Source of the DNA: a virus
IMG/VR virus record: IMGVR_UViG_3300047470_000212
Span: 43,081 to 107,080 of that record
Strand: one strand, 5' to 3'
Length of the DNA stretch: 64,000 nucleotides
Shown here: piece by piece, positions 4,318 through 61,017 of the stretch
Numbering within the stretch: position 1 is the first letter of the stretch
Layout: every line of letters starts with the position of its first letter
Notes under the pieces: generated by a model
The model's input: only the letters and a program-made list of their open reading frames with translations
What the model was told of the DNA's origin: nothing
The model's database searches: none
Program-made: the position numbers and the translations under genes

Positions 4318-4671
4318 TTACGGCTTCTTCGGATCCATTCGAACCGTGCGCCGGGCCGCGTAGGCGCGGGCGTCGTCGTCCAACTGATCCATGCGGACTT
4401 CAGTCTCGGCCACGTCCTGGTAGACGGTGACCACGCGGTGGTCGGCCGGGTCGACGATGGCGACGATGTCCCCTCGTACGTGGCGCCACTGTCCGGGGAC
4501 GCGGGCCGAGGGGTAGGTATGAAGCGGCTTGTCGGCCGCGAGGAGAACATCCTCGCTGGTCCAGCCCTTGGCGGCGGCCTGCTTCTGCGCGTGGTAGGTC
4601 AGCCGGTACTCCGGCGACTCGGTGGCGGGAGCGGTCCAGGTGATGCCCAGAGCTTCGGCGATGGTGGCCAT
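4318..4671 (-). CDS. DUF4258-like (RelE-like fold) protein
   Basis: LTYHAQKQAAAKGWTSEDV...IVAIVD...RVVTVY pattern; own promoter and RBS. Confidence 0.55.
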   Translation of the reverse strand: MATIAEALGITWTAPATESPEYRLTYHAQKQAAAKGWTSEDVLLAADKPLHTYPSARVPGQWRHVRGDIVAIVDPADHRVVTVYQDVAETEVRMDQLDDDARAYAARRTVRMDPKKP

Positions 4672-4717
4672 CTCGGTCTCCTCTGTTCGAGCCTCTGTTC
4701 GAGGCCTTGTGAGGACG

Positions 4718-4747
4718 ACTCTAAGATCACGCACCACCTCATGTCAA
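4718..4747 (-). promoter_or_regulatory. Putative principal-sigma promoter
   Basis: TTGACA-18-TAGAGT. Confidence 0.6.
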
Positions 4748-6951: not shown

Positions 6952-7919
6952 CAGAACCTCGCTATGACGGATGAGTAGGCGTTGCGGACGGCGTTCTTGA
7001 GGGCGTCGGCCCCCATGTCGCCGGGGTCCTTGCAGGGGGTGCCGGAGTAGTCCAGGAACTTCAGGGACAGGCCTCGGCCGGTCCACTCCTCGCGCAGCCG
7101 CTTGCACGTCTCGGCTCCTGCGGTGTCGTTGTCGAGCGCGATGATCACGGAGTCGAAGTGGTCCCGGATCAGGGACATCTGGGCGTCGGAGACTCCGGCG
7201 CCGAAGGAGGCGAGACCGGCCTTGAAACCGCAGGCCCGGAGCCGGACGACGTCCAGAGGAGACTCAACCAGGATGGCCGTGTCGTCCTCGTAGGTATGAA
7301 GTCCGAAGAGGGTCTTCGACTTGGCCATGCCCGGCGGCCGGTTGCGGAAATAGCGCTCGTTCTTCTCCTGCCAGCCCCACAGCATTCCCGTGTCGGGGTC
7401 GCGGACCGGGATGATCCACATCTCCCGCTCGGTGTCCCACAGCACGCCGCAGGCTTCCGCGTCCTCCGGCATGAAGAACCGCTCGGCGCAGGGGGTCAGC
7501 GGCGGGGTGACGTACAGGGCCAGGCTGGCCTCGTTGATCTGCTTGGTCGTGTCGACCGTCTTGGGGTCAGCCTTCTTCGCCAGGAACTTCTTGACCCGCT
7601 CGATCCCGCCCCGCTGCCGGACCCAGGCGACCGCGTCCCCGTACGGGAGGTCGAGCATGTCCTTTACGAGGACCACGAAAGGGCCCTGGTAGCGGCAGGA
7701 GAAGCAGTTGAAATACCCAGCGTCGTAGTTTATGGAAAAGGATGGGTGCTTGTCTTTCTTTCCGGTCCGCGCCTCATGCATCGGGCACGGCATGTGAATC
7801 TCGTCGCCGCTGACCTTGTAATCCAGGCCAATCTCATCCAGGCAGGCGGTGACGTTGCCGGGAACCGGAGTTCCTACTGCGTCCCAGCCGCGCGCCTTAG
7901 AACGAACCCTGGTAGCCAT
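6951..7919 (-). CDS. DNA primase (CHC2 zinc finger plus TOPRIM)
   Basis: CPMH...PSFS...CFSC; VESPLD, ALDNDTAG, KDPGD. Confidence 0.9.
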   Translation of the reverse strand: MATRVRSKARGWDAVGTPVPGNVTACLDEIGLDYKVSGDEIHMPCPMHEARTGKKDKHPSFSINYDAGYFNCFSCRYQGPFVVLVKDMLDLPYGDAVAWVRQRGGIERVKKFLAKKADPKTVDTTKQINEASLALYVTPPLTPCAERFFMPEDAEACGVLWDTEREMWIIPVRDPDTGMLWGWQEKNERYFRNRPPGMAKSKTLFGLHTYEDDTAILVESPLDVVRLRACGFKAGLASFGAGVSDAQMSLIRDHFDSVIIALDNDTAGAETCKRLREEWTGRGLSLKFLDYSGTPCKDPGDMGADALKNAVRNAYSSVIARF

Positions 7920-26661: not shown

Positions 26662-26747
26662 CAGACACCCACCGCAAAGTCGAAGCGGCGAGTGTTCCGG
26701 AGGCGGGGCCCAGGGCCCCAGGTATGAAGTCGGTCAGTGAAAGCCAT
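26661..26747 (-). CDS. 28-aa bridging mini-ORF MAFTDRLHTWGPGPRLRNTRRFDFAVGV carrying CTT-CAT-ACC in frame
   Basis: Start overlaps tape-measure stop (TAATG); stop overlaps next start (TGATG). Confidence 0.6.
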   Translation of the reverse strand: MAFTDRLHTWGPGPRLRNTRRFDFAVGV

Positions 26748-37331: not shown

Positions 37332-38192
37332 TTACGAGTACAGTCCACGCTGGTTCTGGGCGGCATTACCGACGCCCAACTGGCCCCGAATCTTGGCGTA
37401 CTCGGACATAGGCATGGCCTGGAGGTCCTGGAGGGAGTACGACTTGTGCCCCGGATCAGTGTCCATAGGTCCGGTGGTGGAATAGCCCGTGGGGCTCACA
37501 CCACGCATGGTGGCTCGCTGCTGAATAGCGGCCTGCTGGACCGACTCCAGGATAGCCTGGGTCTTTGCCTTGACTGTATTGATGCTTGCCTCTACCTCGT
37601 CCGGCGAATTACCACCGACGAAGTCGAGAAGTTCCGGAGCGATGTTCTCGGACTCCTCGCCCACACGCTTCTGAATGTAGGTCTGGAGGTTGTTGAACTC
37701 CTGCTCCTTGGCGAACAGGGTGCGCTCCTGCTCACGCTCGCGCTCGAACTGCTCGAAGCGGGAAGTCCACTCCTGCTCCTTCTGCGCCAGCAAGTCCTTC
37801 GCGGACATGTCCTGCTCCGCCAGCGACTTGGCCTGAGTCTCGGCGTCCTTGCGACGCTTCTCCTCGTCGGCCTGCGCGGCCTCACGGGCCTTGCGCTGGT
37901 CCTCGATCTCCTTGAGGAACTTGTTGTTCTGCTCCTCGATCTTGGAGATCCGGCCGTACAACTTGTCCTTCTCCTCCTGCCGCGCCTTGGCGATGTCCTC
38001 GGCGGTGAAGCGAGGTTCGGCAGGCGTGGCGGCGGGCGGCTCGACGACAGCGGCCGGTACGACGATGACAGGGTCGCCACCTTCACCGGGCTGCGGAGCC
38101 CCACCCGCGATGGGGTGGATCGGACGGCCATCCTTGCGGTAGCCAAGTACGGTCTGAGCGGGCACGGAAATGCCCTGGGTATGAAGCGACAT
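37332..38192 (-). CDS. Capsid scaffolding protein
   Basis: Charged coiled coil between portal and capsid. Confidence 0.8.
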   Translation of the reverse strand: MSLHTQGISVPAQTVLGYRKDGRPIHPIAGGAPQPGEGGDPVIVVPAAVVEPPAATPAEPRFTAEDIAKARQEEKDKLYGRISKIEEQNNKFLKEIEDQRKAREAAQADEEKRRKDAETQAKSLAEQDMSAKDLLAQKEQEWTSRFEQFEREREQERTLFAKEQEFNNLQTYIQKRVGEESENIAPELLDFVGGNSPDEVEASINTVKAKTQAILESVQQAAIQQRATMRGVSPTGYSTTGPMDTDPGHKSYSLQDLQAMPMSEYAKIRGQLGVGNAAQNQRGLYS

Positions 38193-45388: not shown

Positions 45389-47473
45389 ATGGCCAGCATA
45401 GCGGCCGAGCGGGCCCGTGTACGCGCGCAGAAGGTCAACGGCACCCGCCCCGGAACCCCCGGAACCTTCCAGTCCAGCACCGCCCTCGCACGCATCGTCA
45501 AGCGTGTCGGCGCCTACCTCCGTGTGTCCACCAAGGACCAGATCGTCGGCTACGGCCTCGACGTCCAGCTCAAGGGCATCCAGGACAACATCGACCTCAA
45601 GAACGCGACGGAAGAGCGCAACGGCACCAACATCGTCTGGGAACTCTCCGACGTCTACGAAGACGCGGGCGAGTCCGGCGCCAAGCAGGACCGGCCCGAG
45701 ATGATGCGCCTGGAGCGCGACGTCCTCGCCAAGAAGATCGACGTCGTCGCCGTCCACAAGTTCGACCGCATCGGCCGCACCGGCCGCGCCTTCTGGCACT
45801 GGGTCTGGGCCCTCGAAGATGCCGGAACCTCGATCATCTCCGTCACCCAGGAGATCGACACCACCACCACCCACGGCGTCACCGCGCTCCAGCAGCTCGC
45901 ATCCTTCTCCGAGATGGAATGGCGCACCATCCTGGAGCGCACCCAGAACGGCCTCAACATGAAGGCCGCCTCCGGAGGCTGGACCGGTGGCCCCCCGCCC
46001 TTCGGCTACTACATCGAGAACCAGGGCAAGCGCGACTCCAAGCTGGGCCTCGATACCGAAGAGTGCCGCACCCTCGAACTCGCCGCCCAGTTCATCGTCG
46101 AAGGCGGCTACACCGTCGACCGCGCCGCCCACATGCTCAACCTCATCGGCCGACTCACCCGCAAGGGCGTGGAGTGGACCGGATCCAACCTCCGGCACAA
46201 ATTCTTCAACACCGCCCTGGACGGATTCGTCGTCTACCGAAACACCGACGAAGTCGTCAACAAGCGCCGTAAGCGCGCCACCCGGATGAACCCTGACGGC
46301 ACCCCCAAGCACGGCCCCATGGTGATCATCGACACCCCGATGGTCTTCGAACTCGACCGGCTCATCTCCATCCGCCACGCCCTCAAGCGAAACGGCTGGA
46401 ACCTCACCGGCCCGTACAAGTACCACCCCCTCAGCACCCGCGTGATCGGTGAATGCGGCGCCCACTACACCGGAGTCTGGGTAAAGGCCGAGAACCGCCG
46501 CACCTACCGCTGCACCGGAAACAAGTGCGGCGACTCCGTGATCGACGCCGTGGCGCTCGAAGAAGTCGTCTGGGACAGCCTGAAGAACTTCCTCGGCGAC
46601 AAGGAGAAGCTGCGCGAGATCGCCAAGGACTGGGTGACCACCGCACCGGATCACCGCAAGATGTACGAGGCTCGTATTGAAGAACTCACGCGGGAAATCG
46701 CAGGTCTGCGTGAGCTGACCACCACCACGCTGGTCAACCTCGCGAAGGCGGGCGTCGATGCGCTGGCCATCAATTCAGCAGTGGCGAAGCTGAACGAGGA
46801 GATCAACAACAAGCAGGCGATGCTGGACGACGCCGTGTCGATGCTGGCGGAGGCGGAAGAGTCCGCTACTCGCGCCGAGGATTTCCAGCGCCTGGTCGAG
46901 ATCGCCACCTTCAACCTGGAGTTCATCACCGACCGGCAGAAGGCCGAAGTGATGGACCTGCTGGAGATTCAGGTGACGCTCATCGGGCCGGTTCCGCTGG
47001 ACGGCCGCTTCGGGCCGGACTCCGACATCGAGCAGTGGTTCGGAAAGCGCAGTGTTCAGCCGGTCGAGATGACCGATGCGCTGTGGGAGGAGATCCGTCC
47101 TCGGATCAGCTTCCGGGCCTCGAAGAAGAGCCACGATCTGCGGGGGCTGGTGGAGGGTCTGCTCTACAAGGCCCGCACGGGTTGCCCGTGGTCTGAGATG
47201 CCGGAGCACTTCCCGCCGAAGGAGGCTCTGAGGGCCCGCTGGAGGGCCTGGAAGGACGGGGCGTGGGAGAACATCGTCGAGCCTCTTCTGGAGCCCGCTC
47301 CGCCGCGTAAGCCGCCGCTGCCGCCCATGAAGGTGACGGGGAACATCGACCCCCGTCTGGTCGAGTTCACCAACGGTCAGGCGACGAGCCAGGTTCCGCA
47401 CTCTGCTGGACGAACTTCCAGGGGATTGTTCACGTACGTCATCAACCTGGAAAAATGGCGATTGGCCGCCTGA
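45389..47473 (+). CDS. Large serine recombinase with C-terminal DUF4096-like domain
   Basis: YLRVST, ESGAKQDRP, DRIGR, PFGY, zinc ribbon and coiled coil; MTDALWEEI...LLYKARTGCPWSEMP. Confidence 0.93.
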   Translation: MASIAAERARVRAQKVNGTRPGTPGTFQSSTALARIVKRVGAYLRVSTKDQIVGYGLDVQLKGIQDNIDLKNATEERNGTNIVWELSDVYEDAGESGAKQDRPEMMRLERDVLAKKIDVVAVHKFDRIGRTGRAFWHWVWALEDAGTSIISVTQEIDTTTTHGVTALQQLASFSEMEWRTILERTQNGLNMKAASGGWTGGPPPFGYYIENQGKRDSKLGLDTEECRTLELAAQFIVEGGYTVDRAAHMLNLIGRLTRKGVEWTGSNLRHKFFNTALDGFVVYRNTDEVVNKRRKRATRMNPDGTPKHGPMVIIDTPMVFELDRLISIRHALKRNGWNLTGPYKYHPLSTRVIGECGAHYTGVWVKAENRRTYRCTGNKCGDSVIDAVALEEVVWDSLKNFLGDKEKLREIAKDWVTTAPDHRKMYEARIEELTREIAGLRELTTTTLVNLAKAGVDALAINSAVAKLNEEINNKQAMLDDAVSMLAEAEESATRAEDFQRLVEIATFNLEFITDRQKAEVMDLLEIQVTLIGPVPLDGRFGPDSDIEQWFGKRSVQPVEMTDALWEEIRPRISFRASKKSHDLRGLVEGLLYKARTGCPWSEMPEHFPPKEALRARWRAWKDGAWENIVEPLLEPAPPRKPPLPPMKVTGNIDPRLVEFTNGQATSQVPHSAGRTSRGLFTYVINLEKWRLAA

Positions 47474-56501: not shown

Positions 56502-57720
56502 TGGTAACGCGTCCCTTCTCGGGGTGGATGAAGTGCAGGCGCTGGGAGGGGTCTCCCGTGGCCGCGACGAACTCGTGGGCGTAGATGTTGTCCGACTCCG
56601 GCGAGCCGGTCATGAAGACCGAGCCGCCGTTGGCCATCTGCAACTGCATGGCCTGGTGGTAGTGGCCGATGTACAGGTCGCGGAAGGAAGGCAGGACGCC
56701 GGAGGCCCACTGGTTGGCCTTGCGGAGGATGCCGTAGGCCGGGATGTTGCCGCCGAAACTCTTGATCTCGTCGCCGTGGATCGCCATCGCGGAGTAGTTG
56801 CCGATGGTGAAATGCTGGTACCAGTCCCCCGACGTCTGGAACTTCGTCAGCCGGGGCTCGTGGGCCAGGCGCTGCTTCACGATGTTGTAGACCATGCGGT
56901 CCACGTTGTCCGAGGCCTTGATGCCGTCGCCCTTGCGGCCGAGCCTGCCATGGTTGCCGTACTCGGCGACAACCTCGACCGTCTCGTAGGTATGAAGCGC
57001 CTGCGTGATCGTCCAGATCATCAGGTCGGCGACGTCAAACATCTGCTCGTACAACGTGCCATCCAACTCCCAGACCTGGCCGGGGAAGATGGAGACGCCT
57101 TCGACCATGTCTCCGGTGAACAGCAGCACGCCGTGCTTGACCGGGTGGTCGGCCCGCTGGATGTCGGTGATCTCGGCGGCCTTCTCGACGTACTTCTCGA
57201 TCCGCCTGTGCATGATCTCGCGGTCGTACGTCTCGGTCCGCTTGCCGCCCTGCCAGTCGGTGAGGTGCCACAGGGCTACCTCGGTCGGCTTCATGCGGGT
57301 GTCAGCGATGGGCGGAGTGACGTCGCGCTGGCCGACGTACTGGGCGGCATCCGTGGCCGCGCGGTAGACGGCTTCGATGTACTCGTCGCCGCGCGCCTTG
57401 GCCTTCTTGTAGGCCGCGAACAGACGGCGGTTGTCAGCCTCCAGGGAAGCGATGCGCTCCTCCTGGCCGACCTCCTCCGTGTCCTCGGCCACTGCCTCCG
57501 GATCGCCCTGCTCGGGCTCGGTATGAAGCGTCTTGCGGCCGGGCTCGACCAGGATGGCCCGCTTGTACTCGTTGGCCTTGCGCCAGCGCCGGACGGCGGT
57601 CTCGGACGTCTCGACGCCGTTGAAGACGAGGTCGTCGGCAGCGGCCTGGTGGCCGACGTTCGGGTCCATGAGGATCTGCTGGACCCACTCGACGTCGATC
57701 ATGTCCTGAAGCGTGCTCAA
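56479..57720 (-). CDS. Calcineurin-like metallophosphoesterase with N-terminal extension
   Basis: TDWQ, GDMVEG, GNHG, HGD, GHYH; TTG start with GAGG RBS. Confidence 0.85.
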   Translation of the reverse strand: MSTLQDMIDVEWVQQILMDPNVGHQAAADDLVFNGVETSETAVRRWRKANEYKRAILVEPGRKTLHTEPEQGDPEAVAEDTEEVGQEERIASLEADNRRLFAAYKKAKARGDEYIEAVYRAATDAAQYVGQRDVTPPIADTRMKPTEVALWHLTDWQGGKRTETYDREIMHRRIEKYVEKAAEITDIQRADHPVKHGVLLFTGDMVEGVSIFPGQVWELDGTLYEQMFDVADLMIWTITQALHTYETVEVVAEYGNHGRLGRKGDGIKASDNVDRMVYNIVKQRLAHEPRLTKFQTSGDWYQHFTIGNYSAMAIHGDEIKSFGGNIPAYGILRKANQWASGVLPSFRDLYIGHYHQAMQLQMANGGSVFMTGSPESDNIYAHEFVAATGDPSQRLHFIHPEKGRVTSEHRIWL

Positions 57721-57922
57721 GGGTGTTCCTCTCACAGGGGATGAGGTGGTGTCAGCCCGTCTCCGGGCCAACGACGGTTACGCTATCAGGGTTATTGCTT
57801 CCTAGCAACACTTCACTTCGGGAGTGAGCCGGTTTCACCACAAGGGTGAGCAGCGACTACAACCGTCTGACCTGCACATCCTAGACTTGTTATCGGATCC
57901 AAAGCGATAACTAGGAGTCTCC

Positions 57923-58297
57923 ATGAGTGAAATCGGTGGCAATCTCTTCGTCGTAACCGCGACGGACGCTGCCCAGCCTGTCCTCCCGCTGCCGTTCGCG
58001 GCCGACCTGACCAAGGTCTACGTCAACCTGGCTACGGCTGGCTCGACCAACACCGTGGTCAACGTCAAGAAGAACGGCACCAACGTCACGGGCGCGGCCG
58101 TCACCCTCGCCAACACCGTGACGAAGGCCAACGTGGGCATCGTCAACCCATACATCGGCCAGAACATCGTGACCCCGGCCGTCAACAACGTCGCCCCGCT
58201 GGCGTCCTTCGCGGCCGGTGACACCGTCCAGGTCTCGACTGCCCTGGGTACGTCGGCTGTCGGCGCGGGCGTCGTGCTGGTCTTCGAGCAGCGCTGA
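57923..58297 (+). CDS. Hypothetical beta-rich protein
   Basis: AGGAG RBS; hairpin downstream. Confidence 0.7.
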   Translation: MSEIGGNLFVVTATDAAQPVLPLPFAADLTKVYVNLATAGSTNTVVNVKKNGTNVTGAAVTLANTVTKANVGIVNPYIGQNIVTPAVNNVAPLASFAAGDTVQVSTALGTSAVGAGVVLVFEQR

Positions 58298-58368
58298 CCC
58301 AACCACAAAGCCCCTGGACTGCCACTGTTTCGGCGGTCCGGGGGCTTTCTGCTACCCAAGGAGGGACC

Positions 58369-58662
58369 ATGTTCTGGTCCTGCGAGATCTGCAACGACTG
58401 GGGGGTCGCCGACAACGAGGTCGACCTCGTGGTGGACCGCCAACGGCACAAGGACACCCACGAGTTCCCGGGCACGACAGAGCCCCAGCAGGAGTCCGTG
58501 GAGGAGGATGAGGACACTGTCCTCGGCGCCAATTACCTGGCGTGGGGTATCACGGCCCTGCTGGGGCTACTGTCTGCTCACTGGCACGCGCTGGTGGGGG
58601 TAGTCCCCCTGGCGGGCCTGCTCGCCTTCGTCCTGACCTTCCGGCCGAACGACAAAGGGTGA
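58369..58662 (+). CDS. Small zinc-finger/membrane protein
   Basis: CEIC...H..H; two TM segments; AGGAGG RBS. Confidence 0.65.
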   Translation: MFWSCEICNDWGVADNEVDLVVDRQRHKDTHEFPGTTEPQQESVEEDEDTVLGANYLAWGITALLGLLSAHWHALVGVVPLAGLLAFVLTFRPNDKG

Positions 58663-58743
58663 ACGAAGGGGGTCGAACCCTCACGCCCCTCTCGGGACAC
58701 CGGGGTCACAGCCCGGCGCGGCTACCTTTTCGCCACGTTCACC
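58658..58743 (-). tRNA. tRNA-His(GTG) with G-1:C73 and an atypical long variable arm
   Basis: Acceptor GTGAACG/CGTTCAC, anticodon arm CCGGG-CTGTGAC-CCCGG, variable stem GTCCC-GAGA-GGGGC, T arm GAGGG-TTCGACC-CCCTT. Confidence 0.85.
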
Positions 58744-58782
58744 ATGCCCGGCCTTCAAGCGGTACCGGGAAACGCAGTTGAA

Positions 58783-59100
58783 CTAGGCGATCTTGCGCAC
58801 CGAAGCCCTGAAGATTGCGTTGACGGTACCGCCCGAGACGTGCAGCCGGATGTACCGGGCAGCCGGGTTGACCACAGCGTTGTTCTGGAGGCTGTTCATC
58901 GGAGTGATGGGACCGCTGGGGTACATCGGGGCGGCGCCGTCGAGCGACTCCTCGAAGCCGACCGAGCCACCGCCGAAGATGAAGTACGAGAGACGGGCGG
59001 ACAGCATGCTGCTGGTATCCACCCACTCCCCGATGTAGGTACCCGTGCTGTCGAGCGTGGTGTCGACCTCGATGGGGAGGTCAGGACGCTTGAATGACAT
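58783..59100 (-). CDS. Hypothetical protein within tRNA cluster
   Basis: 105-aa ORF, RBS. Confidence 0.65.
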   Translation of the reverse strand: MSFKRPDLPIEVDTTLDSTGTYIGEWVDTSSMLSARLSYFIFGGGSVGFEESLDGAAPMYPSGPITPMNSLQNNAVVNPAARYIRLHVSGGTVNAIFRASVRKIA

Positions 59101-59204
59101 TCTGTGCCCTTCTTGCTGAACGTTAACCCGGCTGGTTATCGCGGAGCCGGAAGCGCGGGCGGATGAGTTTATACGGATGGACTAAGTACGCCATTCAGTC
59201 CGCG

Positions 59205-59277
59205 CTCCCCGACCTGGACTCGAACCAGGAACCAACGGATTAACAGTCCGTTGCTCTGCCAATTGAGCTATCGGGGA
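59205..59277 (-). tRNA. tRNA-Asn(GTT)
   Basis: Canonical cloverleaf, anticodon loop CTGTTAA. Confidence 0.95.
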
Positions 59278-59282
59278 TTGCG

Positions 59283-59363
59283 TACCCAAGGTGGGACTTG
59301 AACCCACACGCCTTTCGGCGCCGCTTTTGAGGCGGCTGACTGTGCCAATTCGTCTACTCGGGC
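59283..59363 (-). tRNA. tRNA-Leu(CAA)
   Basis: Type II cloverleaf, loop CTCAAAA, A73. Confidence 0.9.
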
Positions 59364-59422
59364 TGGCGCCGGACGGCTCCCGGTCTGCCCCAGGTCACCG
59401 TCCGGCCTTTCCTACGTGAATC

Positions 59423-59914
59423 CTACTTCACGGTGTAGCGACCGTAGTAAACGGACTTCGTCCAGGGCTTGTAGTAGTTGACTCCCTTACCGGGCCGCTC
59501 GGTTTCCAGCCAGGTGTGGGAATTGACGTAGATACCGACGTGGTAGACGTAGCCGTGGGAGTCGTGCGCGAAGACGAGGTCCCCGGTCTTGGGGGTCTTG
59601 ACGTGCACGCTCTTGCGGTACTGGTCGTTGGCGACCCGGGGGATGCTCTTCCCGAGGCGCTTGAATGTGTACTGGGTGAATCCAGAGCAGTCGAAACCTC
59701 TGGACGGTGAGGAACCTCCCCACACGTACCGGACGCCTATGTATTTGGCGCCCTGCTTCACGATTTTCGTTCCGGACGACGTCGTGGTGGTGGCGTGGGC
59801 CGGGGCCGAGACGTTCGTGGAGGCGGCCGGGGTATTTGCCTGCGCGCTTGATGTAGCGAGCGGGGAAATAGCCAGGGCGCCAGCGAGCAGAAGTCCAGCG
59901 ATGCTCTTATTCAT
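59423..59914 (-). CDS. Secreted NlpC/P60 peptidoglycan endopeptidase
   Basis: Signal peptide MNKSIAGLLLAG..AQA; YVWGG, FDCSG, HVGIY. Confidence 0.92.
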   Translation of the reverse strand: MNKSIAGLLLAGALAISPLATSSAQANTPAASTNVSAPAHATTTTSSGTKIVKQGAKYIGVRYVWGGSSPSRGFDCSGFTQYTFKRLGKSIPRVANDQYRKSVHVKTPKTGDLVFAHDSHGYVYHVGIYVNSHTWLETERPGKGVNYYKPWTKSVYYGRYTVK

Positions 59915-59928
59915 GACAGCACTCCGCA

Positions 59929-60052
59929 CGCCTGCGAGATTAGGTGACGGGCTCGGGATAAGTGCCTTTCCCTACCACAAATGACTCTGCGGATTCGCCC
60001 CAAAAGATTCGGTCTCCCGCCCCTGTTCAGGGTTGAGTTCAGGATTTGTCCA
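59929..60052 (-). ncRNA. c-di-AMP (ydaO/yuaA)-like riboswitch
   Basis: AATCC..GGGAGACC..TTTGGGGCGAATC..GTAGGG..CCCGAGCCCGTCACCTAATCTCGCAGGC directly before RBS of a cell-wall hydrolase. Confidence 0.75.
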
Positions 60053-60079
60053 GGAACAGGGCTAAGCGTCTGGACAAAG

Positions 60080-60152
60080 TGGCCCCCCTTGGAATCGCAC
60101 CAAGATCTCCCGCTTTTCAGGCGGGCGCATTAACTGTCTCTGCCAAAGGGCC
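60080..60152 (-). tRNA. tRNA-Phe(GAA), atypical D and T loops
   Basis: Anticodon arm CCCGC-CTGAAAA-GCGGG; T loop TGCGATT; no GG in D loop. Confidence 0.75.
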
Positions 60153-60157
60153 GGGAG

Positions 60158-60231
60158 TCTGGACGGCAGGATTCGAACCTGCGACCCCTCGCATCCAAAG
60201 CGAGCGCGCTACCGGGCTGCGCTACGTCCAG
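60158..60231 (-). tRNA. tRNA-Pro(TGG)
   Basis: C1:G72, A73, loop TTTGGAT, GGTTCGAATCC. Confidence 0.92.
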
Positions 60232-60651
60232 AAGTTGATGTCTTCGACACTACTGTATCAGGGGTACGGCATGTCAACCCTTAACCGCAAACTGCTTGCG
60301 CCACGAGGGAGAAGGGTTCCCCGCCGGGTCTTACGCGGTCGCGCTCAGATGGCGACGGCAGCCCGGTTAGGCGGGGAACGGGAAGCGGCCGAGGCGGAAC
60401 GCCTGCGAGGCCGTGACGAACGCGGGCATGCCAGCCAGCGGGAGGTGGTTCCCCCGGCTCGGCAGTCGCTCGCTCGTCGTGTTCATAGATCCTTTGTACC
60501 GGATCCCGACTACGGCTTTGTAATCGCTTCCGGCCACTGCCTGGAAGCCTCGTGCGGGGGTGGGGGGTAGGACACTGTCCGGGAACGCCGAAGGGGCCGG
60601 GGGGATGTTATCCCTCGGCCCCTTCTCGGGTGCAGGTCAGCTCACGTCAGC

Positions 60652-61017
60652 TCACTTGTGCGCGTCCTCAAACTCGCGGAGCAGGTCCTCCGGCAGTCGG
60701 CCGGTGTGGGACACGTCGCGCCCCTGCTCCTGCAACCACTTGCGGACGTCCGCCGTGGTGAAGGCGCCCCTCTTGCCCTTGATCGCCCTGCGCACCTGCG
60801 TACCCGTGCGCTTCTGCGTGTCGCTTGCGATCGAGGTGAAGGGCTCCAGCACCTCATGCATGTGGTCGATGTGCTCCTGGCACAGGTCCATCAGGTAGCG
60901 GGTGGTCCCGACGGTGATCGGGGTGGCCTCGTTGTTCGGCACATCCTGCCCGCAAGCTACCTTTTCGCGCTTCCGAGTGACCTTGAAGTCGCACTTCTTC
61001 ATCACTACGTCTGCCAT
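60652..61017 (-). CDS. lsr2: Lsr2-like nucleoid-associated protein
   Basis: YLMDLC...L.PF; VRKWLQEQGRDVSHTGRLP; AAGGAG RBS. Confidence 0.85.
   Translation of the reverse strand: MADVVMKKCDFKVTRKREKVACGQDVPNNEATPITVGTTRYLMDLCQEHIDHMHEVLEPFTSIASDTQKRTGTQVRRAIKGKRGAFTTADVRKWLQEQGRDVSHTGRLPEDLLREFEDAHK

Follow-up and report, generated by a model that had tools for sequence, protein, structure and literature searches.

Results and Discussion

The tRNA cluster of a Streptomyces phage

The stretch of DNA analysed here, called the window below, comprises the last 64 kb of a virus record of 107,080 bp that carries direct terminal repeats. It has a GC content of about 64% and encodes a family A DNA polymerase, an SPP1-type portal, baseplate and tail lysin genes and a large serine recombinase. 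The portal is about 62% identical to the portals of the Streptomyces phages BRock, pSt2308, Alone3, LuckySocke and GiJojo, and the window is part of a Streptomyces phage. The serine recombinase (45389-47473, plus strand) shows Resolvase, Recombinase and zinc-ribbon domains together with a C-terminal DUF4096, a domain known as the N-terminal part of IS4/5 transposases. The region is present in 24 sequencing runs, all of them DNA from rhizosphere metagenomes and none of them RNA. A near-identity search of positions 57500-61000 against deposited phages returned an unrelated tRNA-Pro as the sole match. A collinear relative is found in Streptomyces sp. NPDC002088, with 74-78% nucleotide identity across the compared stretch, the same tRNA cluster and a nearly identical tRNA-His gene of 86 nt.

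Five tRNA genes were detected in the whole genome using ARAGORN, all of them on the minus strand near the right end, and the gene described below is the only tRNA-His among them. Besides tRNA-His(GUG) at 58658-58743, the cluster (59204-60231, ARAGORN and Rfam) consists of tRNA-Asn(GUU) at 59204-59277, tRNA-Leu(CAA) at 59282-59363, tRNA-Phe(GAA) at 60079-60152 and tRNA-Pro(UGG) at 60157-60231. It also contains a full-length c-di-AMP riboswitch of the ydaO type (59915-60049, minus strand, 71.9 bits) and, directly downstream of it, the gene of an NlpC/P60 peptidase (59423-59929, minus strand).

For comparison, relatives including G412 to G417 were fetched whole via the portal, and positions 57800-59300 were aligned to them by blastn. 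A presence/absence cassette of approximately 58603-58823, which holds the tRNA-His gene, is absent from G415, and a larger stretch (about 58639-59154) is absent from G412, G414 and G416, with both flanks aligning. The long tRNA-His gene is therefore accessory, being an indel among close relatives. A second indel (58824-59154) adjoins the tRNA-His gene and contains an ORF of 105 amino acids, and the spacer between the Asn and His genes measures about 460 nt in the window and in locus L027 vs 75-83 nt in L004 and L008. No Pfam match was obtained for the small ORFs flanking the tRNA-His gene, including the one of 105 amino acids. A scan of positions 58200-60500 gave no promoter-like site and one terminator-like site, which is located on the plus strand and scores at the level of shuffled sequences.

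A tRNA-His with a long variable arm

According to textbooks, a long variable arm in bacteria is confined to tRNAs for Leu, Ser, Tyr and Sec, and synthetases use this arm to tell the tRNA classes apart. An earlier note on this DNA had described His identity elements (GUG anticodon, G-1 and C73) on a type II body, and these can be read directly in the sequence, where both ARAGORN and Rfam call a tRNA. ARAGORN called a tRNA-His(gtg) of 86 nt on the minus strand, given as 58657-58742. With Rfam model RF00005 the gene scored 48 bits (E 3.8e-8, gathering score 29), which places it among the tRNAs. From C73 (58658) to G-1 (58743) it covers exactly the span originally assigned to it, and its extent is also borne out by covariation within its family (see below).

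The acceptor stem (GUGAACG/CGUUCAC) has 7 bp and is extended by an encoded G-1 paired to C73. The anticodon GUG (58709-58707) lies in the loop CUGUGAC (58711-58705), and the T arm reads GAGGG-UUCGACC-CCCUU. The D arm (58718-58733) is of the Leu type, with a 3-bp stem (GCG/CGC), an A13.C22 mismatch and a 10-nt loop carrying A14, A15 and G18G19. U48 (58683) is invariant and can pair with A15 as in tRNA-Leu. As had been noted before, a variable stem of 5 bp is closed by GAGA (GUCCC-GAGA-GGGGC, 58698-58685), and it includes one U.G pair. The complete variable region amounts to 17 nt and differs from the short variable loop of type I tRNAs. CCA is not encoded, as C73 is followed by CUU. The minimum-energy fold of the single sequence (-41.8 kcal/mol, z -2.24) recovered the acceptor, anticodon, variable and T helices, while the D helix was placed out of register.

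The gene thus combines the GUG anticodon and the genome-encoded G-1 opposite C73 of a bacterial tRNA-His with the long base-paired variable arm, the 3-bp D stem and the A15 with U48 of a class II tRNA-Leu, from which it differs in having C73 and GUG and not A73 and a Leu anticodon. With canonical type I tRNA-His it shares GUG, G-1:C73, the pairs G1-C72/U2-A71/G3-C70, a 7-bp acceptor and a 5-bp T stem as well as a normal G18G19 and T loop. In contrast, the canonical variable region has 4-5 nt and not 17 nt with a 5-bp helix, the 3-bp D stem with its Leu-type loop is a further difference, and the anticodon loop carries C32/A37/C38 where the host tRNA-His has U32/G37/U38. Indeed, the single tRNA-His of NPDC002088 itself is an ordinary type I gene of 74 nt with the anticodon loop UUGUGGU. 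With class II tRNA-Leu it shares a D arm that is identical or nearly so to that of phage tRNA-Leu(CAA/UAG), A15 with U48, the geometry of the variable arm and a body identity of 0.76, and again it is the A73 and the Leu anticodon of tRNA-Leu vs the C73, G-1 and His anticodon found here that separate the two.

With tRNA-Sec the gene has the long arm in common and, if G-1:C73 is counted, a branch that is formally 8/5, but tRNA-Sec has a D stem of 6 bp, a D loop of 4 nt, UCA as its anticodon and G73, whereas a 3-bp D stem, a 10-nt loop, GUG and C at this position are found here, and it does not belong to that class. The nov-tRNAs of nematodes are eukaryotic and reportedly charged according to their body, that is with Leu, whereas in the tRNA described here the acceptor identity agrees with the anticodon. 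The nov-tRNAs (V-arm tRNAs; Hamashima et al., cited in PMC5389517) likewise join class I anticodons to class II bodies. Allo-tRNAs and (8/4) tRNA-His are also non-standard tRNAs, known from phages and from metagenomes, and some of them combine a long variable arm with an anticodon other than Ser; (8/4) tRNA-His lacks G-1 and has A73 or U73, and allo-tRNAs have Sec-like D arms (PMC5389517). Their branches are 8/4 or 9/3, and a 7/5 tRNA with G-1:C73 and a Leu-like D arm falls outside this group. No description of a 7/5 tRNA-His with G-1:C73 and a long arm was found in the literature searched, which is not proof of its absence.

A conserved family in phages

A distant search of deposited phages led to Arthrobacter phage Talia1610, whose only tRNA-His is an annotated tRNA-His(gtg) of 86 nt with an identical D arm and with compensatory changes in the acceptor, anticodon, variable and T stems. 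The first scan of IMG/VR used the 20-nt D-arm word GTGGCGAAANGGTAGCCGCG alone and revealed the long tRNA-His in the same Pro-Phe-Leu-Asn-His cluster in seven contigs. The same word is present in genuine phage tRNA-Leu(UAG/CAA/UAA) genes of 80-83 nt and in two tRNA-Ser genes, so that the Leu-like character of the D arm, as claimed from the sequence of the window, stands. A second pattern (G-1/G1-U2-G3, YUGUGR loop, long gap, T loop, CAC-C73) gave 115 IMG/VR loci, of which roughly five are estimated to be chance matches, and together with the earlier loci 93 distinct long tRNA-His sequences of 82-92 nt were obtained. In 596 Gb of cellular species representatives this pattern matched 41 loci only. 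ARAGORN confirmed 27 long tRNA-His in 24 of the 41, most of them in contigs of metagenome-assembled genomes with tRNA arrays. Among 401 Streptomyces genomes searched a single one, NPDC002088, carries the long tRNA-His. The long-arm tRNA-His is a conserved family with a phage-restricted distribution and represents a new structural variant of tRNA-His that is widespread in phages.

For the analysis of covariation, 20 family members with a Leu-like D arm were aligned. The five-helix structure pairs in 98.2% of the cells, and 17 of the 26 pairs, including all five of the variable arm, show changes on both sides, so that all five helices including the extra arm covary. None of 500 shuffles reached the observed paired fraction or covariation score, slid controls paired in 42-53% of the cells, and RNAalifold predicted the same cloverleaf with the extra arm unaided from the 20 sequences. 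In the four variants of the clade the anticodon arm is identical and the other arms vary. Divergent phages show no variation in G18G19, U33, the T loop and the identity marks, the invariance of G-1/C73 being partly imposed in most of the census since the search pattern demanded GGTG...CACC. The acceptor end was left unconstrained in the scan with the D arm only and in the BLAST match, which yielded three distinct His sequences, all with G-1:C73. A further scan, in which only the D arm and U33-GUG were fixed, added L309 (A3-U70 acceptor, G-1:C73, CCA encoded) and L306 (G-1:C73), and its other new matches were not callable as tRNAs.

Among non-His tRNAs, tRNA-Leu(CAA) comes closest in its body, and a neighbouring tRNA-Leu(CAA) that resembles the tRNA-His in both the D arm and the variable arm is present in the L004 lineage. 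A73 is the discriminator of the tRNA-Leu genes that share the D arm. For most of the other long-armed tRNAs in the fetched loci the discriminator base is the one that the anticodon predicts (Lys A73, Asn G73, Trp G73, Cys U73, Ile A73), and a G at position -1 is rare in those of them that are not tRNA-His. Long-armed bodies with class I anticodons occur in phages for Thr(UGU) with 84 nt, Lys(UUU) with 86-88 nt and Cys(GCA) with 83 nt (L011:3788-3871, 7252-7337 and 7482-7564; L003:517-604; L180 from BRock), and long-armed Asn, Trp, Ile and Met tRNAs are likewise present. The cultured relatives BRock, pSt2308, Alone3 and GiJojo encode 28-30 tRNAs including an ordinary tRNA-His of 72-74 nt. A tRNA-Met(CAU) of 81-84 nt is found in all four, and BRock also has an Ile(GAU) of 84 nt and an Arg(UCG) of 82 nt.

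The CUU-CAU signal

The CUU-CAU signal to which the tRNA had been linked in the earlier note is real. CTTCATA occurs in 47 copies on the coding strand vs one on the opposite strand and CTTCATACC in 34 vs one, with a composition estimate of about 0.2 per strand for the motif. Among the 8/9-mers of the genome the in-frame CTT-CAT-ACC shows the strongest over-representation, reaching roughly 60 to 170 times the composition estimate. Examples on the minus strand across the whole window are located at 38186, 30744, 26729, 11722, 6930 and 2110. At every copy checked, frame 0 (Leu-His-Thr/Ile) was open or was the coding frame with high GC3. CTT precedes 31 of 77 CAT codons (about 40%), and of the His codons, some 670 in all, only about 47 belong to the motif. 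Frameshifting of the Ty1 +1 type at CUU-CAU-A was also considered and was dropped as a general explanation, as for most copies the coding frame with high GC3 is frame 0 both before and after the motif and nothing special was seen in the +1 frame.

Several copies of the motif are located in mini-ORFs or 10-20 codons ahead of a stop that overlaps the next start. These mini-ORFs, found at 26729, 11722 and 6930 of the window and at genome position 40217 (2863 bases before the window), have about 10-30 codons, the motif follows 2-6 codons after their start, and their stop codon overlaps with the start of the next gene or lies directly against it. Examples are MRLHTYGGPC ahead of a RecA-like gene and MNNRLHTW..., and they look like coupled leader peptides.

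In the relative from NPDC002088 (G011 contig 18, 203 kb; L164/L186) CTTCATACC is clustered at about 89-182 kb, with 35 coding-strand copies there vs about 25 in the other 10.6 Mb, and this concentration indicates an integrated prophage. The sister phages G415, G416 and G417, whose portals are 92-94% identical, carry CTTAATAC(C), encoding Leu-Asn-Thr, at the orthologous sites in 27, 20 and 30 copies, respectively. CTTCATAC occurs at most once in these three, and CTTAATAC is absent from the CAU-type genomes. Where Leu-His-Thr is retained in the protein, its codons in AAU-type genomes are CTG CAC ACC. Eight further fragments are of the AAU type. As CTT-AAT-ACC stands at the orthologous sites, the two forms are mutually exclusive and CTG CAC ACC is used for the conserved peptide, the motif points to a nucleotide-level signal that is read in frame and whose specificity is switched by one base.

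Origin and function of the long tRNA-His

Taking sequence, structure and distribution together, we think that the gene probably encodes a working but dispensable phage tRNA-His, presumably charged by HisRS, on a scaffold derived from tRNA-Leu. In the simplest account a class II tRNA-Leu was remoulded into a His acceptor and the arm was retained since the core needs it. The body would be derived from, or modelled on, class II tRNA-Leu with its 3-bp D stem, A15 with U48 and paired variable arm, and the anticodon and acceptor-end identity would have been switched to His. The marks read by HisRS (G-1 paired with C73, the acceptor end G1-C72/U2-A71/G3-C70 and the GUG anticodon) are kept, from which His charging and the reading of CAC and CAU during infection of Streptomyces would be expected. 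Selection maintains the arm as a helix; it may just be required for folding of the class II core, or it may bring an extra benefit, for example an escape from tRNA-cutting enzymes. G-1:C73 is the main determinant for HisRS in bacteria, hence the tRNA should accept histidine. HisRS from E. coli charges unusual tRNAs with G-1, and tRNAs of this kind proved to be good substrates of the enzyme (Mukai et al. 2017, PMC5389517). The tRNA would have to be expressed and to keep G-1 after processing, and as CCA is not encoded its maturation, with CCA addition, would rely on host enzymes. Since the cultured relatives have an ordinary tRNA-His and G412 and G414 have none, the selective value of the long form is probably modest or conditional.

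The earlier note had proposed that the tRNA may be specialised for reading a CAU that follows CUU; genes with CUU-CAU-ACC would then be translated efficiently only in its presence. This would fit the real and frame-locked signal, in which about 40% of the CAT codons lie, and it would fit the anticodon arm that is constant within the clade. Within the clade only CAU-type genomes were found to have the long tRNA-His, namely the motif-rich G000, G001-G005, G010/G432 and the prophage G011, and none of the five AAU-type contigs that include the tRNA cluster has it. As these are few and related lineages that are not phylogenetically independent, the co-occurrence is a lead and not support. However, the motif is present on the coding strand in 41 copies in G414 (110,248 bp with terminal repeats, 100% complete) and in 34 copies in G412 (98,440 bp and 99% complete), and neither ARAGORN nor blastn nor Infernal found a tRNA-His in them, their tRNAs being only Asn, Leu and Pro, plus Phe in G414. 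In the fragments G413 and G425 the motif and the tRNA-Asn region are likewise present and His is absent. Motif-rich relatives lacking this tRNA, which the earlier note itself had named as a refutation, thus exist. Outside the clade the proposed co-occurrence of tRNA and motif also failed to appear: Talia1610 shows no clear enrichment (2 and 8 copies vs 3 and 3 in the control), and four other phages with the long tRNA-His (G006-G009) have the motif at control level. A sixth phage, G419, combines a long-arm Asn with an ordinary His and only 9 copies. In the BRock group the motif is at background level. Moreover, the host tRNA-His(GUG) reads CAU too, so that the tRNA is no sole-decoder switch of the bldA kind, and the motif accounts for only a small part of the His codons. 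A dedicated decoder of CUU-CAU is therefore not supported, the link of the tRNA to the CAU form of the motif remains weak, and we regard such specialisation as very unlikely. A broader variant, which we regard as distinctly unlikely, is a clade-specific module of codon-level control, in which about 40 genes and leader mini-ORFs would carry CUU-CAU-ACC in frame. The switch to CUU-AAU-ACC in the sister phages would match one base at anticodon position 36 of a GUN tRNA, and the long tRNA-His would tune or protect the reading of CAU, perhaps against a phage-encoded codon- or tRNA-specific RNase similar to RelE or colicin E5.

The long arm could also be an adaptive shield, the phage copy replacing a host tRNA-His that is cut or depleted by a defence nuclease of the host or by a phage enzyme, with the class II shape and the altered anticodon loop hiding it from recognition. 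We consider this possible but rather unlikely. The anticodon loop CUGUGAC differs from UUGUGGU of the host at positions 32, 37 and 38, and phage tRNAs known to evade anticodon nucleases are likewise altered copies of host isoacceptors with changes in this loop (PMC10264068, PMC11555353). The escapes described there are anticodon-loop substitutions, and a redesign with a long arm was not found in the literature searched. Covariation maintains the helix of the arm, and the same phage loci have long arms also on Lys, Thr, Asn, Cys and Trp tRNAs. A small protein of 117 amino acids encoded by the phage (4321-4671, minus strand; AlphaFold model with pLDDT 72.8) has a predicted structure that best matches the CdiA-CT(NC101) tRNase, RelE, HigB, YafQ and colicin E5, but these fold matches are weak (best E 0.03) and Pfam DUF4258 stayed below the cut-off. 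The protein is confined to this phage clade and to Streptomyces prophages, with relatives in the isolates NPDC058252, BK022, NPDC059468, NBC_01393 and MI02-2A and no evident antitoxin, and PHROGs gave no match for the ORF of 139 amino acids at 4318-4737. Against a shield, no nuclease targeting tRNA-His was identified in Streptomyces in this analysis, the arm is perhaps kept only for folding of the class II core, and some defences are described to cut the variable region of the class II tRNA-Tyr (PMC13096335), so that an arm can be a liability. Another reading is a dual or wrong identity, in which the class II body would lead to partial charging with leucine (or serine) and to ambiguous decoding of His codons. 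LeuRS from Streptomyces coelicolor does not use A73, an A73C exchange keeping 68% of kcat/Km on type II tRNA-Leu, and it ignores the anticodon, recognising U8-A14, the elbow and how large the variable region is (PMC6614811). As the tRNA-His described here carries these features and A73 is not needed, its Leu-like body with C73 might also accept leucine in the host. Such a dual identity nevertheless appears highly improbable to us, as G-1:C73 was kept wherever the search left the acceptor end free, the family spans phages of several hosts and misreading of about 670 His codons would harm the phage proteins; for serine, the core is of the Leu and not of the Ser type by established identity rules. 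Finally, the gene might have no role in translation and be a decaying copy of tRNA-Leu, a decoy or another RNA element, in line with its being dispensable in close relatives and with the CCA that is not encoded. Compensatory changes keep all helices, however, G18G19, the T loop, U33 and the identity marks do not vary, and it is the sole tRNA-His in the phage studied here and in Talia1610, which makes this reading scarcely credible.

Conclusion

A conserved and covarying family of His tRNAs with a class II body shows that a class I identity was transferred to a class II scaffold in phages, apparently many times. If the tRNA is charged with His, it would be a proof from nature that such hybrids are tolerated by HisRS, EF-Tu and the ribosome and would offer ready-made scaffolds for the engineering of orthogonal tRNAs. 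It may then also uncover a structural way for phages to escape immunity directed at tRNAs. Culturable carriers are at hand with the prophage of Streptomyces sp. NPDC002088 and with Arthrobacter phage Talia1610.
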